Positions 30,494-61,413 of a stretch of DNA of 64,000 bases are shown here, one piece after another. The number at the start of each line of letters is the position of its first letter. The stretch's first letter is position 1. The translations under genes and the position numbers were made by a program. Below the pieces are notes generated by a model. It made no database searches. It worked only from the letters and a program-made list of their open reading frames with translations, and was not told the origin of the DNA. The stretch comes from Escherichia coli (GTDB lineage Bacteria; Pseudomonadota; Gammaproteobacteria; Enterobacterales; Enterobacteriaceae). The stretch lies in NCBI RefSeq assembly GCF_030013595.1, contig NZ_CP122768.1; one strand, written 5' to 3'.

Positions 30494-30590
30494 GGGCAAA
30501 AATCACAACTATCTGACGCATAATAATTTTATTTATTTTTCAATACGTTAAGCAACATCAACAACTACAATAAGCTACGATAACCCACTC

Positions 30591-30643
30591 TTTTTTTGCC
30601 CCATTTTTGCCCCTTTTGCGGCTTTTTGCCCCATTTTTGCCAC
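30591..30643. repeat. five tandem ~10-11 bp T-tract repeats, consensus TTTTTGCCCC(A)
   Basis: TTTTTTTGCCCCA TTTTTGCCCC TTTTGCGGC TTTTTGCCCCA TTTTTGCCAC, followed by an A7 tract (30645-30651). The G of each GCC recurs every 9-11 bp. Confidence 0.85.
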
Positions 30644-30803
30644 TAAAAAAATCCTAAAACACCCAATCCGTGAACTGCAATTGGCACCCATGAATACTTT
30701 CCAATAGAATCTGTATCGGCTGGAAATCATTCAATACTCGCACTATCGAAAGTTATCCAGCCAGCCGCGGTACGTTCTTGCATACGACGTGCCGCGGCTT
30801 CTG

Positions 30804-52366: not shown

Positions 52367-53180
52367 GTTTGCCCTTCTCCGTTAAAAATTCGTCGGGTAG
52401 TTTCTGAGGGGCGTAGATCGGCAGAGCATCGCAACTGCAATAAACCTCCTCCCCGGCAGCAGTGATTTCGTCATAAAAACCATATACGGGCTTAATAAGC
52501 CCCTGCTCCAGCGCCCACGAATCGCGGAGGAGATAAATTTTCTCGTCGCGCTCTTTGTGGTCCTGTCGGTATTTGTAGCCCGGACGCCGCCAGTTCGAAT
52601 GCCAGCGCAGAGCAATCGCACCACTCTGAACAGCCAGCAGATATTTAACGTTGCTCGCCAGCTTATGTCCCTGGTCAATAGCCACCCGGCGACTGATAAA
52701 ATCCATATCCTTCACGGACTTCTGAAAACCGGACTTCACTTCCCGGCGATCTATTTCGCTCACCCCGTCAGGTGGAATGGACGTAACCCACCCCTGAAAA
52801 CGCTGTATGGTTTTCTCGATGGCCTGTTCGCGGTTGAGTTTTATCAGGTTGGCACTGGCGAAAATTCGCCTGTCGAGTTCCTTGCGAAACTCAGGTTTCA
52901 GTTTTTCAACAGTGATTTTTTTAGGGCCGTCAGGAGGCTGATCCCGTAATGCCCCGCCGTCGATGACAAGACGGCTGTAGATAGCGGTGAGATGTTTTCT
53001 GGCTACGGTATCATCTGGGGTTTCTCGCTGAGCGGCTACACGGAGTTTCCGGCACCATTCGAGCAATGATTTTTCGCTATCCCACCCGTGATTTACGTAG
53101 TAGTTAACGGCATCCGTCAGAACCTCATACAGCGTCCTGATCCGTTTCTTCTTCCTCCCCGCCCGGCTGGAAATTGCCAT
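52347..53180 (-). CDS. head morphogenesis / minor head protein
   Basis: About 277 aa from MAISSRAGRKKKRI. The longer reading overlaps the portal gene by about 190 nt and is rejected. Confidence 0.55.
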   Translation of the reverse strand: MAISSRAGRKKKRIRTLYEVLTDAVNYYVNHGWDSEKSLLEWCRKLRVAAQRETPDDTVARKHLTAIYSRLVIDGGALRDQPPDGPKKITVEKLKPEFRKELDRRIFASANLIKLNREQAIEKTIQRFQGWVTSIPPDGVSEIDRREVKSGFQKSVKDMDFISRRVAIDQGHKLASNVKYLLAVQSGAIALRWHSNWRRPGYKYRQDHKERDEKIYLLRDSWALEQGLIKPVYGFYDEITAAGEEVYCSCDALPIYAPQKLPDEFLTEKGKREFNRA

Positions 53181-54564
53181 CAGGCGTCTCCTGCTTCGGT
53201 GGTTCATAATTCGCCAGCGCGTCCACATCAATGATGAGTGGAGCTTCGCCATAGGTTTGCGTGGCATTAACAAGGCTTGCCAGCCATTCAGTGACGGCGG
53301 CACGGTTTTCAGGATCAACCTGTGGCGACACGGCAGAAAAAAGTGCTATCGCCTGTTGAATCACTTTACTGTCGCTTTCCCGGCGTTTGTCCGGCGACTC
53401 CTCCACCAGCTCCTGCCACGTCGCGGTAAACTCGCGCCGCCACTGGTAAAACGTGGTTTTATAGTCCTCGGTTATGATGTCCGGGTAATCATTTTTCAGC
53501 GACTGATAAAATTCCTCGTTCCAGGCGATGTACTGCACCAGGCGTTCGAAATAATCCATCACAGGTTCAATCTGCTGGCGTACACCATCGATATACTGGC
53601 TGATGGCTTTCGAGTCCTCCTTACCTTCACCGAATCCGTTACTGAATGCTTCTTCCTTGATAATAATGGCCGGAACGTCACTCCCGGCGGCAATATCAGC
53701 AATGATATTGTCGCGGGCAGTATTCAGCGCCCCGTCGATGTTTTGCAGGTTCAGTGAACTTACGTCTTCGTCTTTTCCAATACTCAACACGCCTTTATTT
53801 TTGGCGGCTTTCACGTTTTCCCTTTTACGCCCCGTGGCAGCAGCCATGATCCCGTCCATTTTCGAACCGTTCTGCACAACTTTAGCTACCAGTACGCCCG
53901 CTTTCTGACTAACGAGATCATTCGCCTCCATCGTGTTGATATAGGATTTCAGGGAATAAAGAACGCGCTGAAACACACTTCGTCCGGTGAATCCGAACGA
54001 TGAACTCTGAAACTCCAGATAAATCGGTGTGCCGTTGAAGATTTTCAGTGTGCGTGACGGATGCCAGTCTTTTCCGCCAATCTTCAGCCTTTTGTTGGCT
54101 TCCTGGAAAAACGGACTGTTTGGGTTCTGGTCAGTCACCATCGAACCGGAAGCGTTCAACGGATCCCACGCGTTGATATACACATCCTCTTCTGTCAGCC
54201 CGAATGTCGGAAGCGGCTCACGACATGAAACACTGTCGGTGCCCACGCCGATCGCTGCAGCACCGTAGCAACGAGACAGAAAAAACAGATTTTTTATCTT
54301 CTCGTTGACCCTCATACGTTCCCATACCTCCTGGAAACGCCGTACAACCCTCTCGTCAGGATCTGTCTCCACGTTATACTGTCGCGGCTTACACATCGCC
54401 ATCAGTATGGGTTTTTCGACAAGTTTTCCGCCCAGAGGATGGAATTGCCACAGCAGCTTACACAATTCATAGCCAATATCGGTTCCCGGCTGAATTTCTT
54501 CAGCCTCAAGAATACGCATCAGTGCTGAACCGAGGCCGCCAGTAATCTCGATCTCTGCCATCAA
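53125..54564 (-). CDS. portal protein
   Basis: 479 aa immediately after TerL. Acidic C-terminus. Typical size. Confidence 0.75.
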   Translation of the reverse strand: MMAEIEITGGLGSALMRILEAEEIQPGTDIGYELCKLLWQFHPLGGKLVEKPILMAMCKPRQYNVETDPDERVVRRFQEVWERMRVNEKIKNLFFLSRCYGAAAIGVGTDSVSCREPLPTFGLTEEDVYINAWDPLNASGSMVTDQNPNSPFFQEANKRLKIGGKDWHPSRTLKIFNGTPIYLEFQSSSFGFTGRSVFQRVLYSLKSYINTMEANDLVSQKAGVLVAKVVQNGSKMDGIMAAATGRKRENVKAAKNKGVLSIGKDEDVSSLNLQNIDGALNTARDNIIADIAAGSDVPAIIIKEEAFSNGFGEGKEDSKAISQYIDGVRQQIEPVMDYFERLVQYIAWNEEFYQSLKNDYPDIITEDYKTTFYQWRREFTATWQELVEESPDKRRESDSKVIQQAIALFSAVSPQVDPENRAAVTEWLASLVNATQTYGEAPLIIDVDALANYEPPKQETPDGNFQPGGEEEETDQDAV

Positions 54565-54579
54565 AAATATCCTGATTTT

Positions 54580-55908
54580 TTACAACGCCGCGTAATTACC
54601 GTGCGCGATGATCAACCCATAGGTGTAACAATCGAAAAGGTCATCAGCACGTTTATGCGCGTCTTTATCCGCCAGGTGGAATCCGGCGATTTGTTTTATG
54701 AGGTGGTTTGCGGTGGTGCGCTTGAATGAAACGGTCTTGTCGTAAGCCTCCCGGACGATTTTGCACACCCCCTGATAGTGGTAGCTGGATGCCATCACCG
54801 CCCGTTCATCTTTGCCCTTGCTGGTTAGTGCCGATTTAATCGGCGTCATATCCCAGCCTTCGGTTTCCGCCTTCTGGTTGAGGATTGCCCCCATCGCGGC
54901 GTCTTCCATAAAAATTCCCTGGCTGCCCAGACGCGGACGGCATAATTTCGCGAGGCGCTCAAGGTTGTCATAAACGCCGGGGATATATTCAGGAAGCAAT
55001 GACGCTTTAATTTGCGTCACATCCCAGTCAATAATCGTCAGTTTTGGCTCGTCCGAATACGTTGACTCATAAGCGAAATACACCACGCCAGTACCATCAT
55101 TTTCGGTCCCGCCTTTCAGCGCCGTATCCATCACTGCGAAAATCATGTCGCAGTACGGCGGCATCTCAATCGGCTGACCGTCCACCAGCAGCTTATCGAC
55201 ATCGAGTAACGCGTCTTTGGACCAGTCCACGAACTCTGCAAGATATTCCTGCTGCCAGACGCGCGGATCGGATTTCTTTTCCGTTTCCTCCAGTTCTTCT
55301 TTCGGAATAAACGGATTCGATGAAGTTGGCGCATGGTGCATGATAAATCCCAGGGATTCATCGTGGCATATCGCGTAGAAAAAATTGCTCTCGTCGATAC
55401 CGTTTGGTGTGGAAAAAACCCACGCACAGCCACGGTAATCGACAAGCGTCGGGCGTATAGCACGGGGCCAGATTTCCTCGAGCATTTCCGGCGATTTAGT
55501 GAATGCAGCCTCATCAATCAGCACAGCGTGATATTTACGCCCACGCCCGGCCAGTTTGTTATTGTCCGTTACCCAAAAGTCGATGCGCCCCCCATTACGG
55601 AGAATGATGCGCTTTTCATTTTTTGACTGGCTGAGGATCAGCGGTTGCAGAACGGCGCTAATTTCATCCCAGATTTCCTGGTACTGGCGGTATTGTGCGG
55701 TAAAAATCCCCACCCTACCCGCGATAAGTTGCCCGGTGGTAGGAACGGCAAATTTCCGCGTAGCGAAACTGGTAGCGATGTTCACCAGCATCACCGTTTT
55801 ACCCCAGCGACGACCACAGCATACCGCGTGGAAGCGTTCCTCTATTGCCGCCGTCCATGCAGCTATTTGCCCCTCATGAGGTTTTGGGAGGTAGATTTCA
55901 ATCGACAT
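54580..55908 (-). CDS. terminase large subunit
   Basis: 442 aa. Walker A CCGRRWGKT and Walker B HAVLIDEAAF. C-terminal nuclease-like half. Confidence 0.85.
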   Translation of the reverse strand: MSIEIYLPKPHEGQIAAWTAAIEERFHAVCCGRRWGKTVMLVNIATSFATRKFAVPTTGQLIAGRVGIFTAQYRQYQEIWDEISAVLQPLILSQSKNEKRIILRNGGRIDFWVTDNNKLAGRGRKYHAVLIDEAAFTKSPEMLEEIWPRAIRPTLVDYRGCAWVFSTPNGIDESNFFYAICHDESLGFIMHHAPTSSNPFIPKEELEETEKKSDPRVWQQEYLAEFVDWSKDALLDVDKLLVDGQPIEMPPYCDMIFAVMDTALKGGTENDGTGVVYFAYESTYSDEPKLTIIDWDVTQIKASLLPEYIPGVYDNLERLAKLCRPRLGSQGIFMEDAAMGAILNQKAETEGWDMTPIKSALTSKGKDERAVMASSYHYQGVCKIVREAYDKTVSFKRTTANHLIKQIAGFHLADKDAHKRADDLFDCYTYGLIIAHGNYAAL

Positions 55909-56989
55909 TATCCACTCCCGGCATCGGCAGAGAGTTGTGGATAATTATTTCGTTATTCTCACCACCCACGCCTTTTTTGAGGTTTTCAATCTCAGTGCGC
56001 AGCTTTTCGTTGCGAAGCCTCAGTCCTTCAAGCTCCAGATCATTGCGACTGTCAGTTGCACCACCAGCAGAACTTCCTTTCGTCGCCGTTATCAGCTTGA
56101 TAAGTTCGCGCCGGGCGGCAGCCTTATCCTCCAGCAGGATCTCAACGCCGAATTTTCCGAGCTTTGCCCCTGCATATAATTGCCGCGCATCCCCATCAAG
56201 TAGAGTGGTATCAGCCATATAAAGCTGTCCCGTTCCCTCACCGCAGCACTTCGGGCAGTCCGGATTGGGTATGGCGTTATCAACAAAGCCGAGGCCTCCA
56301 TATTCTGGTTCAGGCTTACCGTCTTTAGATGCCTGCGCTGCTGCCCTGTCAAATTCTGCTATATCTCGCCACTGGTAGAGGTGATTCTCCCCCCAGCAAT
56401 AACGGCAGTTAACACGGCGAAATTGTGAAATCTGATTGGGATCAGCCTGGACAATGGCCATCAACTGGCTCACCAGTAAATCCAGGTCTGCGGTATAGCG
56501 TTTCTGGTACTGATTGCGGAACCATGAGATAGCCCGATAAACCTTAACATTTCTTAACAGACGTGAGGCTGCGGCACTTGCTACGTTTCCCGTTCCCTCG
56601 TAACCCGCTAGGCGGTATGCCTCGATGAGGTTTTTACCCTGCGCAACCAGCATGGCGAATTTTGCCTGCTGGTCAGAAATGCCGAATTCATCGGGACAGA
56701 ATGAAAATTCCTCCGCGTCGCCCTCATTCAGACACGCATCGGATACTGGCTTTTTTTTCTGAGATTTTCCGTTCCGCTTTTGCGCAGTCTGCGCAGATTT
56801 TTTCTGCGCACTTTGTTGCGCAGTTTTGCACATTTCTGTCTGCGCATTTTTCGGAGGTTTTTTGATGTAACGACGGGCTGTTGCGTAATTCAGTCCCCTT
56901 GCCTCACACCATGCCACCGGAGATACACCGGAGCGGGTGTATTCAGCAATATATTCCTGCTGCAACGCCCCCCAGTCCGGTCTGCTCAT
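55898..56989 (-). CDS. terminase small subunit-like DNA-binding protein
   Basis: 363 aa upstream of and overlapping TerL. N-terminal HTH (VSPVAWCEARGLNYATARRYI), basic AQ-repeat linker, CxxC..CxxC (CRYCW ... CPKCCGEG) and a C-terminal coiled coil. Confidence 0.65.
   Translation of the reverse strand: MSRPDWGALQQEYIAEYTRSGVSPVAWCEARGLNYATARRYIKKPPKNAQTEMCKTAQQSAQKKSAQTAQKRNGKSQKKKPVSDACLNEGDAEEFSFCPDEFGISDQQAKFAMLVAQGKNLIEAYRLAGYEGTGNVASAAASRLLRNVKVYRAISWFRNQYQKRYTADLDLLVSQLMAIVQADPNQISQFRRVNCRYCWGENHLYQWRDIAEFDRAAAQASKDGKPEPEYGGLGFVDNAIPNPDCPKCCGEGTGQLYMADTTLLDGDARQLYAGAKLGKFGVEILLEDKAAARRELIKLITATKGSSAGGATDSRNDLELEGLRLRNEKLRTEIENLKKGVGGENNEIIIHNSLPMPGVDNVD
56781..56846. repeat. cluster of five TGCGCA palindromic hexamers inside terS
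   Basis: TGCGCA at 56781, 56790, 56805, 56817 and 56841, plus the variant TGCACA at 56827. Confidence 0.9.
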
Positions 56990-56992
56990 CAG

Positions 56993-57244
56993 TTAATCCT
57001 GATTTTTATCCACCCTGAGTAGTTCGCGCAGGGCAAAGGCATCCCCTTTTCTGGCAAGCTTAAACAATGCCGCCCGTAGCTCGGCTTCACCTTTCGCTCT
57101 GCCCTTACGGATGGACGCATAAAAATTTGTCATTGCTTCCCGATTTTCTTTCAGTCGGTTCAGATCAACATCCAGAAAGTTAGCGATTTGTTGTGCAGTC
57201 ATCCGGCACGCTGCCAGAGACTCGACTTTCGAATACGGAATCAT
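56993..57244 (-). CDS. small HTH-like protein upstream of terS
   Basis: 83 aa (..MTAQQIANFLDVDLNRLKENRE..). Its stop lies 3 nt before the terS ATG. Confidence 0.55.
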   Translation of the reverse strand: MIPYSKVESLAACRMTAQQIANFLDVDLNRLKENREAMTNFYASIRKGRAKGEAELRAALFKLARKGDAFALRELLRVDKNQD

Positions 57245-60194: not shown

Positions 60195-60620
60195 TTAAGT
60201 ATCTTTTTGTGGTCCCATACAATAATCAGATGAACTACATGTGCTTAAAGAAATTAGTTCGTTAGTAGAGAAGGCCTTTTTAAACTCGGAATCACTCCAC
60301 ACATTCTCCTTATAATAGACCCTTATACTTTCACCAGTAGCATAATAATACTTAGCCATTTCCATCATGGCATCGAAACCTTGTTTATGAGATCCAAAGA
60401 CATCCACCTTACACATATTGTGAATGGGAAGAGTCACATTATCACGCTTTATACCAATACAAAAAAACTGACTTTCCTTACCCCCGGATGTGTAAACTCC
60501 ATATGATAAATTATTTATCTGAACATTACTAAAGTACTTATCATAATCACTCATCACTGCATGACTTGTACCAGATAACAATGAAAGAGCAATTAAGGAA
60601 TATTTTATTTTCCGTTTCAT
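60195..60620 (-). CDS. pltB: AB5 toxin binding (B) subunit, PltB/ArtB/SubB-like
   Basis: 141 aa from [21 protein letters not shown] (signal peptide; SD AAGAGG). ..FFCIGIK...[17 protein letters not shown]...[21 protein letters not shown] parallels PltB/SubB (YFYSTGQSVRIHV..NIW...LSSCS..C.GP) from memory. Confidence 0.8.
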
Positions 60621-60687
60621 AAAACCTCTTATATACGCTAACAAGTTAATCAACAAATCAAATAATAAACACATCATTTCAATAGCA

Positions 60688-61413
60688 TCATTTTATTATT
60701 TCTTTTAACACACCTCTTGCATCATAAAATTCGGGTTCATAATAAGTGGCTCTTTTATTTAAACCATCTCTTCTGACTCCCTTCAGAGCAAAACAGGCAC
60801 TGATCAGACTTCCAAATGCATTGATTCTTTCTCTAACTGACACAGTTGGTACAACTAATTGAGGTATAACACCTGGATTTACAAATGTGGATCCAGGAAC
60901 ATACCTGGCATTGGTGGTTCCGGGTCCATCAGATACTTGACTGTTGAATCTGTCATAAGTCAACTCCACTGCCTCAACAATATTCTCACTAGGGATATGT
61001 TCAACTGCGACAATTTCGTTCTGCTCTCGCATCATTATCCGCTCAAATCCAGAAAAGGTTACACCGCGCTGGGTTAGATAATTGACTGACGGTTGAATAG
61101 GATAAAAAATATTATTTGCCCTGATACGGTAACGATATAATCTACCATGAAATCCAGAACTTGAATAATATTGCCTGGCTATGTTATATGTTTCAATTAA
61201 ACTGGTTGTGGTCGCAATAAATGCACTATCCCTACTTCCTGCCGCACATGAGTCTCCTCTTAAATGTTGCTGTAAATTTCTGTTAAAACCATGAGATCTA
61301 AATCCATCACGAAATATTTCCTCTGGAGGGCGAGAATCCACTCTATAAACAAAATCCGTAGCATTCGCATACCATGAGAAAGAAATGAGAAACAATATAA
61401 ATATTTTCAACAC
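60688..61413 (-). CDS. pltA: ADP-ribosyltransferase (A) subunit, pertussis toxin S1 / ArtA / PltA-like
   Basis: 241 aa, GTG start 7 nt after AAGAGGTG. Signal peptide ..[11 protein letters not shown]-site motif [22 protein letters not shown]-like FIATTTS. Catalytic Glu region MMREQNEIV. Cys pair. Confidence 0.85.

Follow-up and report, generated by a model that had tools for sequence, protein, structure and literature searches.

How does the small terminase subunit of a prophage recognise the DNA that is to be packaged? We addressed this question in a 64,000-nucleotide stretch of Escherichia coli DNA (NCBI RefSeq assembly GCF_030013595.1, contig NZ_CP122768.1; hereafter the window), which carries a lambdoid, Rac-like prophage with its small-terminase gene, terS. 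An earlier note on this DNA had drawn attention to five copies of the palindrome TGCGCA within 66 bp of terS and had proposed them as a candidate pac, or terminase recognition, site. Since TerS recognises phage DNA and pac sites commonly lie inside terS, we consider this probably correct: sequence comparison leads us to a probability of roughly three in four that the TGCGCA copies serve as binding sites for a protein, are under selection as DNA and form the recognition part of pac in this prophage. The features on which the argument turns are the following.

56781-56846: TGCGCA array, proposed TerS recognition element of pac; five perfect copies and one decayed copy.
56781-56786, 56790-56795, 56805-56810, 56817-56822 and 56841-56846: the perfect TGCGCA copies.
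56827-56832: decayed sixth hexamer, TGCACA on the plus strand and TGTGCA on the coding strand, encoding M-C-K.
56640-56645: isolated TGCGCA inside terS, in the V-A-Q of the Terminase_2 domain; internal control.

We found the five copies again at 56781, 56790, 56805, 56817 and 56841, and the near copy TGCACA at 56827, as the note had reported. Its codon reading also held: on the coding strand the codons AAT, ACT, AGT, TCT and ACT are each followed by GCG CAR, giving N-, T-, S-, S- and T-A-Q. The near copy lies in a different reading frame from the other five (aTG TGC Aaa). Counting TGCGCA beyond the cluster, as the note had suggested, gave 26 occurrences in the whole window, where dinucleotide-preserving shuffles lead one to expect 31.7. 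The hexamer is therefore clustered at the array only, without general enrichment. Among 200 such shuffles, the largest 66-bp cluster of any non-periodic hexamer was three copies in 192 and four in 8, and a cluster of five in 66 bp was reached in none. The TGCGCA cluster at 56781-56846 is not a product of chance.

Is the array anything more than the coding consequence of a repetitive linker? One alternative is that the hexamers simply accompany a peptide repeat, [ST]AQ[KT], of a basic linker, and that they arose and persist through replication slippage or unit duplication without any function as DNA. Consistent with this, Tandem Repeats Finder reports a 36-bp repeat present twice, with 80% matches, over 56780-56850, close relatives differ by insertions and deletions of whole units, and single copies decay. 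Evidence against it came from distant relatives. A full-library protein search found TerS proteins merely 37-52% identical that retain xAQ-rich linkers after the same N-terminal domain. Scanning one genome per species with peptide patterns from the N-terminal domain only yielded 80 loci, in Escherichia, Serratia, Pantoea, Providencia, Proteus, Xenorhabdus, Morganella, Erwinia, Tatumella, Vibrio, Aeromonas and others. In 69 of the 80 – Enterobacterales, Vibrio and Aeromonas species – a helix of this domain reads ..AR[R][YH]IK, and we refer to these as R-type loci. The results in the next two paragraphs concern these 69 loci unless stated otherwise.

The 186 nt that follow the domain contain 355 copies of TGCGCA in total, one per 36 bp, as against one per 1738 bp in the remaining 337 kb of these loci. 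At least three copies are present in 67 loci, and an unbiased ranking of hexamers placed TGCGCA first, with 49-fold enrichment and an occurrence in all 69. The array is not confined to one peptide. The 355 copies fall in all three frames and encode unrelated peptides: 259 lie in frame 2 (xxT GCG CAx, encoding xAQ or xAH), 75 in frame 1 (xTG CGC Axx, encoding [LMV]R[TKNS]) and 21 in frame 0 (TGC GCA, encoding C-A). When synonymous codons were resampled with the peptides held fixed, 36.5 copies were expected and 348 were observed, so that the actual peptides account for only about one tenth of the count; in 67 loci the observed number exceeded all 1000 resamples. Of the A[QH] dipeptides in the linkers, 90% have the coding form NNT-GCG, compared to 7% in other open reading frames (ORFs) of the same loci. 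These results bear out the note's proposal of constraint at the DNA level.

Comparison of the relatives' terS genes, another check that the note had named, revealed hexamers conserved at synonymous sites across genera. Immediately beside the array, the codons of the domain have a pairwise four-fold-site identity of 0.48, and an invariant alanine in the domain is encoded by GCC in 33 loci, GCT in 10, GCG in 15 and GCA in 11. Because neighbouring synonymous sites are scrambled to this degree, conservation of the hexamer does not derive from recent common descent, and its retention across genera argues against slippage. A uniform one-frame unit is likewise missing: spacings are mostly 7, 9, 12, 14 or 16 bp, over a range from 7 to at least 16 bp, and the six core bases alone are fixed, with variable flanks that are A-rich on the coding strand. 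The position of the array is more regular: of 68 distinct linkers, 55 have a first copy that begins 8 nt past the ..YIK codon. Across the TerS family as a whole the array has 3-10 copies.

We also examined close relatives, comprising 80 viral contigs with a terS at 80-100% protein identity. These retain four to six hexamers, and the copy corresponding to 56827 is a perfect TGCGCA in most (A/G/C/TTG CGC AAA, encoding M/V/L-R-K in the other frame). The residue preceding A-Q differs among them (N, T, S, F, P, G or D), and its codon always ends in T. Array copy number shifts by insertion or deletion of whole units. Among 45 distinct close-relative genes, linker A-Q is encoded as T+GCG in 202 of 220 instances (92%), compared to 5 of 130 (4%) elsewhere in terS; that A-Q outside the linker takes other codons in the same genes is a further point against slippage. 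The alanine codon of the V-A-Q at 56640 is GCT in 58 relatives, GCA in 10, GCC in 9 and GCG in 5, and we excluded this TGCGCA from the array as a chance copy whose codon drifts freely. Frameshifted database variants (P0121, L134, L115 and L159) retain the DNA motifs despite a changed linker peptide; the frameshifts, in an A-rich tract, could be sequencing errors or real slippage. The linker of the window's terS holds a run of eight A (T8 on the plus strand, 56752-56759).

The signal of DNA-level selection thus comes from the deep comparisons and from codon choice, and the array is selected as a DNA sequence itself, beyond what coding needs. The note's alternative of simple unit duplication survives in part: the 36-bp repeat and the whole-unit indels indicate that the array probably originated, and varies in copy number, by duplication, but duplication does not account for its maintenance. 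As an account of the array as a whole, we consider slippage without a DNA function extremely improbable.

What might read such an array? The gene and the parts of its product that flank the array are these.

55898-56989, minus strand: terS, small terminase subunit, 363 amino acids (ORF, Pfam and PHROG evidence).
56858-56989, minus strand: region coding for the N-terminal helix-turn-helix (HTH)-like domain, residues 1-44 (structure models and conservation).
56696-56857, minus strand: region coding for the disordered basic linker, about residues 45-98 (predicted local distance difference test (pLDDT) scores and sequence).

In TerS, a three-helix domain at the N terminus is joined by a disordered basic linker to a Terminase_2 domain with a Cys-rich insertion. 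The Pfam match to Terminase_2 (PF03592) spans residues 107-310 (E value 7.2e-9; 36.8 bits against a cut-off of 26.1), and the protein matches phrog_51 with an E value of 8.6e-69. In an AlphaFold model, the N-terminal domain has helices at residues 6-20, 24-31 and 35-38 with pLDDT 77-88, residues 57-93 fall below 50 and coincide with the array-encoded region, and the Terminase_2 domain is confident. A second structure model, built from a seven-sequence alignment, gave pLDDT 81-90 for residues 1-40. The N-terminal domain is kept across 80 species. Its top Foldseek matches are all HTH proteins, yet every one has a non-significant E value above 1, and profile searches with the domain against PDB and Pfam returned no significant match. 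From the models, Y35-K44 (YATARRYIKK) is a putative recognition helix. Residues of about 195-250, the insertion in the Terminase_2 domain, contain two Cys pairs (CRYC ... CPKCC) that resemble a zinc ribbon and are kept in distant relatives.

We observed that the hexamer changes with this helix. Counts over genomic loci and phage records together were as follows.

Helix RR[YH]: 72 loci; TGCGCA 374, TGCGAA 3, no other motif.
Helix KRY: 14 loci; TGCGCA 3, TGCGAA 52, no other motif.
Helix RTRIK (VT2-Sakai Shiga toxin (Stx) phage): 1 locus; TGCGCA 1, TGCGAA 0, CGATCATGA three times.

Among the 11 genomic loci with a K-type helix (..AKRYIK), 10 have no TGCGCA in the linker. K-type loci instead carry TGCGAA (TTCGCA in the opposite direction), frequently as the 12-bp palindrome TGCGAATTCGCA, which occurs 17 times in these loci, always in the linker and never elsewhere. 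Over the first 43 residues, position 39 is the sole consistent difference between R and K types, and their motifs, TGCGCA and TGCGAA, differ by one base. The motif covaries with a single helix residue in these comparisons and is therefore tied to TerS; the switch from TGCGCA to TGCGAA when the helix has K for R also counts against slippage of a peptide repeat. Both R and K helices are found on Terminase_2, 'ILKPQHE' and 'ETKxIRGSR' TerS body types. Since the same bodies carry either helix, the motif goes with the N-terminal domain rather than with the TerS body. Sepvirinae relatives that share the VT2-Sakai protein backbone but have RRYIK contain five to seven copies of TGCGCA.

In VT2-Sakai itself, the three copies of CGATCATGA lie within four GATCAT units spaced 12 bp apart. 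The TerS proteins of Stx phages (L163 2620-2690, VT2-Sakai orf49; and L162) have the same N-terminal module with a helix that reads ..ARTRIKMG, and their linkers contain four GATC repeats of the form (C/T)GATCAT(G/A)A at 12-bp spacing that encode IDHEIDHKTDHEIDH. On sequence grounds, these repeats (GATCATGA) are a candidate Stx-phage pac element.

A second N-terminal HTH class of TerS has the same layout with other motifs (L254-L257, corresponding to P0156, P0140, P0128 and P0153). Several of its arrays form two opposed clusters: TCCGTCC twice and then GGACGG four times; GGGGCA three times and then TGCCCC three times; and GTTCGCA twice and then TGCGAACC three times. A scan of viral contigs with P0156 returned one locus that lacks the N-terminal module and was uninformative, and a second scan with the N-terminal alignment returned mostly close relatives again.

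The direction of the motifs bears on the possibility that the hexamers act in mRNA, where self-complementary copies would pair and the resulting hairpins would control terS/terL translation or mRNA stability. A 111-nt segment of the mRNA does fold at -35.8 kcal/mol (z-score -5.85 relative to shuffles), but such a score is an automatic consequence of repeated palindromes. No covariation is seen: in every taxon the stems would be built from one unchanging hexamer, and decayed copies are uncompensated. Copy numbers are often odd, and at the common spacings of 7-9 nt adjacent copies would be too close together to pair. In K-type loci we counted 37 TGCGAA and 18 TTCGCA, 17 of the latter within the palindrome, and the single copies all point in one direction, which also argues against pairing. 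Dependence on a protein residue would be unexpected for an RNA structure. We therefore view a role in mRNA as very improbable.

The genes beside terS provide the remaining components of a packaging system.

54580-55908, minus strand: terL, large terminase subunit; overlaps the 3' end of terS.
53125-54564, minus strand: portal gene (Pfam Phage_portal_3, phrog_146).
56993-57244, minus strand: 83-amino-acid ORF immediately upstream of terS; hypothetical in RefSeq.

TerL has a weak Pfam match to Terminase_6N (E value 2.3e-5) and a match to phrog_2 (E value 7.4e-36). A Pfam search of TerS and TerL matched no family beyond Terminase_2 and Terminase_6N, and PDB searches with both proteins gave no close solved relative useful for distinguishing cos from pac packaging. 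In PhiR12_3, a member of the Sepvirinae that shares the N-terminal TerS module only, the adjacent TerL is annotated 'T4-like headful'. The 83-amino-acid ORF matches phrog_309 ('terminase small subunit'; E value 7.1e-22, profile positions 145-218 of 319) and no Pfam family; its product is a possible accessory DNA-binding protein. In strain cq9, RefSeq names the portal gene 'anti-CBASS protein Acb1 family protein'.

How might the array work in packaging? We infer that the array is read by the N-terminal domain, is bound by TerS and is the start point of packaging, in headful mode. In this model, TerS would form an oligomer in which each subunit presents its extra N-terminal HTH domain on a flexible linker of ~50 residues, and several of these domains would each bind one hexamer of the five- to six-copy array on concatemeric phage DNA. 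The bound array would mark the DNA for TerL, which would cut nearby to begin headful packaging, probably towards terL. Flexible tethering of the N-terminal domains could accommodate both uneven spacing and missing copies.

Several points weigh against identifying the array as the TerS recognition element. Some close lineages have lost single copies, partly by synonymous substitution (a large subgroup has GCA for GCG, another CGT for CGC). The density of substitutions among close relatives proved unsuitable as a test: across 32 collinear close sequences, 5 of 36 columns vary within hexamers and 6 of 30 between them, so that hexamers are not separated from their neighbours. Losses and column variability together indicate that individual hexamers are dispensable. 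The HTH fold is suggested by a model of moderate confidence and by fold matches that are not significant, and headful rather than cos packaging is suggested by the weak Terminase_6N match. Support for TerS binding and for packaging ends at the array is comparative. The one E. coli prophage with a pac mapped in terS, LF82 Gally (PMC9928086), has an unrelated 140-amino-acid P22-like TerS, and we set it aside as a model. A protein search of phage records returned no studied phage with this terS, the matches being induced-prophage or temperate records without mapped ends; one Stx-phage record, phi296, simply begins at terL. Finally, P0156 belongs to the second N-terminal HTH class and still has five copies of CTGCGCAA. 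The link between RRYIK and TGCGCA is therefore not exclusive, and neither the assignment of the reader domain nor a one-residue code is airtight.

The occurrence of the hexamer in P0156, whose N-terminal HTH is of another class, would also fit a real DNA-binding array with another job – an operator for late genes, bound by TerS or by, for example, the 83-amino-acid protein, or an array read by a domain of TerS other than the N-terminal one. The upstream 83-amino-acid ORF, with its PHROG match to a small terminase, is in keeping with this idea. The array is nevertheless tied to terS in every locus, whereas the gene upstream of terS differs between loci. Its motif also tracks the type of N-terminal helix over three or more kinds of TerS body, and the known role of TerS DNA-binding domains is recognition of pac or cos. 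We consider such an alternative job unlikely, and recognition of pac by the TerS N-terminal domain remains our preferred reading.

Is there precedent for an array of this kind? By analogy, its design is closest to that of P1 pac, and it is also close to the cosB-Nu1 specificity pairs of lambda and phage 21. The P1 pac is located in pacA, the gene for the DNA-recognition terminase subunit, and its motif TGATCA/G contains Dam sites (GATC) and is arranged in two clusters around the cut. As cited in PMC11260489, P1 pac has seven hexanucleotide repeats. The array in the window resembles it in using clustered hexamers as a recognition signal within the gene of the recognition subunit, but it consists of TGCGCA without GATC in one cluster of ~60 bp, and its terminase differs from PacA/PacB in pairing a Terminase_2 TerS with a TerL that matches Terminase_6N. 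Repeats with GATC are confined to the Stx-phage relatives, whose GATCATGA arrays are nearer to P1 pac in this respect.

In lambda and phage 21, the repeated R elements of cosB are read by an N-terminal winged HTH of the small terminase (gpNu1 or gp1), and the packaging specificities of the two phages differ by changes in the recognition helix and in the sites. This co-change parallels the covariation of the R/K helix with TGCGCA/TGCGAA that we observed. Lambda is a cos phage, and its R elements are ~16 bp long, non-coding, located between cosN and Nu1 and dependent on bending by integration host factor (IHF); the sites described here are, in contrast, 6 bp long and inside the terS reading frame, and a Pfam search of TerS matched no Nu1-type family. 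The iterons of the lambda origin of replication (ori) are an array of ~19-bp sites inside gene O that is bound by the N-terminal domain of O's own product. As in the terS array, the sites lie inside the gene of the (here proposed) binding protein, so that specificity and target travel together, though the iterons serve replication initiation and not packaging.

Other pac phages are more distant in design. The G1P small terminases of SPP1 and SF6 are described in PMC4737164 as an oligomeric ring that displays HTH motifs, targets pac and achieves recognition through multiple sequence-independent HTH contacts. TerS in the window belongs to the same Pfam family, Terminase_2, but differs in having a strictly conserved hexamer and an extra N-terminal domain before the canonical Terminase_2 HTH. 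The P22 pac, like the array, lies within terS (gene 3), and mutations at wobble positions attenuate it with TerS unchanged (PMC11260489). It differs in being one asymmetric site with a 17-nt consensus, and P22 TerS is unrelated. Our survey of the terminase, pac, Stx and lateral-transduction literature found no published description of a TGCGCA site in terS.

A broader reading, which we hold tentatively and at slightly less than even odds, is that the TerS N-terminal domain and its own site array, 60-180 bp directly downstream, make up a portable packaging-specificity cassette. Such a cassette would recombine onto different terminase bodies, and very small changes would reset its specificity. 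Judging from the motif-helix pairs, R39 may read TGCGCA, K39 may read TGCGAA and the RTR helix may read GATCATGA; the R/K case may come close to a one-residue, one-base-pair code.

The wider prophage has features of its own. The stretch is identical to E. coli strain cq9. Tail-fibre genes of the prophage stop beside uspF/ompN at about 30.7 kb, and in a related phage record trkG adjoins the packaging genes. At 30590-30645, in the intergenic gap between the uspF/ompN-like host genes and a prophage tail-fibre assembly gene, are five repeats of ~10-11 bp, TTTTTGCCCC(A), followed by a run of seven A. We considered these repeats as a second array and set them aside, as their position at the prophage end makes a relation to the attachment site more likely; they may be arm-type sites for an integrase or excisionase. 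Their core, TGCCCC, happens to equal the linker array motif of a distant TerS (L255). At about 60195-61413 on the minus strand are genes for a scabin-related ADP-ribosyltransferase and for the B subunit of a subtilase-family AB5 toxin, an annotation taken from the identical strain cq9. This ArtAB/pertussis-like pair lies between the late-regulator region and the lysis genes, the position of stx in Stx phages.

Little is yet understood of how ring-shaped small terminases recognise their genomes, and only a handful of phages have a known pac site. The TGCGCA family offers a very simple 6-bp site together with natural variants – one residue, one base pair – that make recognition directly testable. 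The family is also common: of 5426 complete E. coli genomes, 884 contain the 401-bp terS segment, and Stx phages carry related cassettes. A known position and orientation of pac would predict which neighbouring chromosomal genes are mobilised by lateral transduction, and would supply a small cis element for building packageable plasmids. If the cassette reading is true, packaging specificity would be reprogrammable, and the pac of very many uncharacterised prophages, Stx and Rac-like ones included, would be readable straight from terS.

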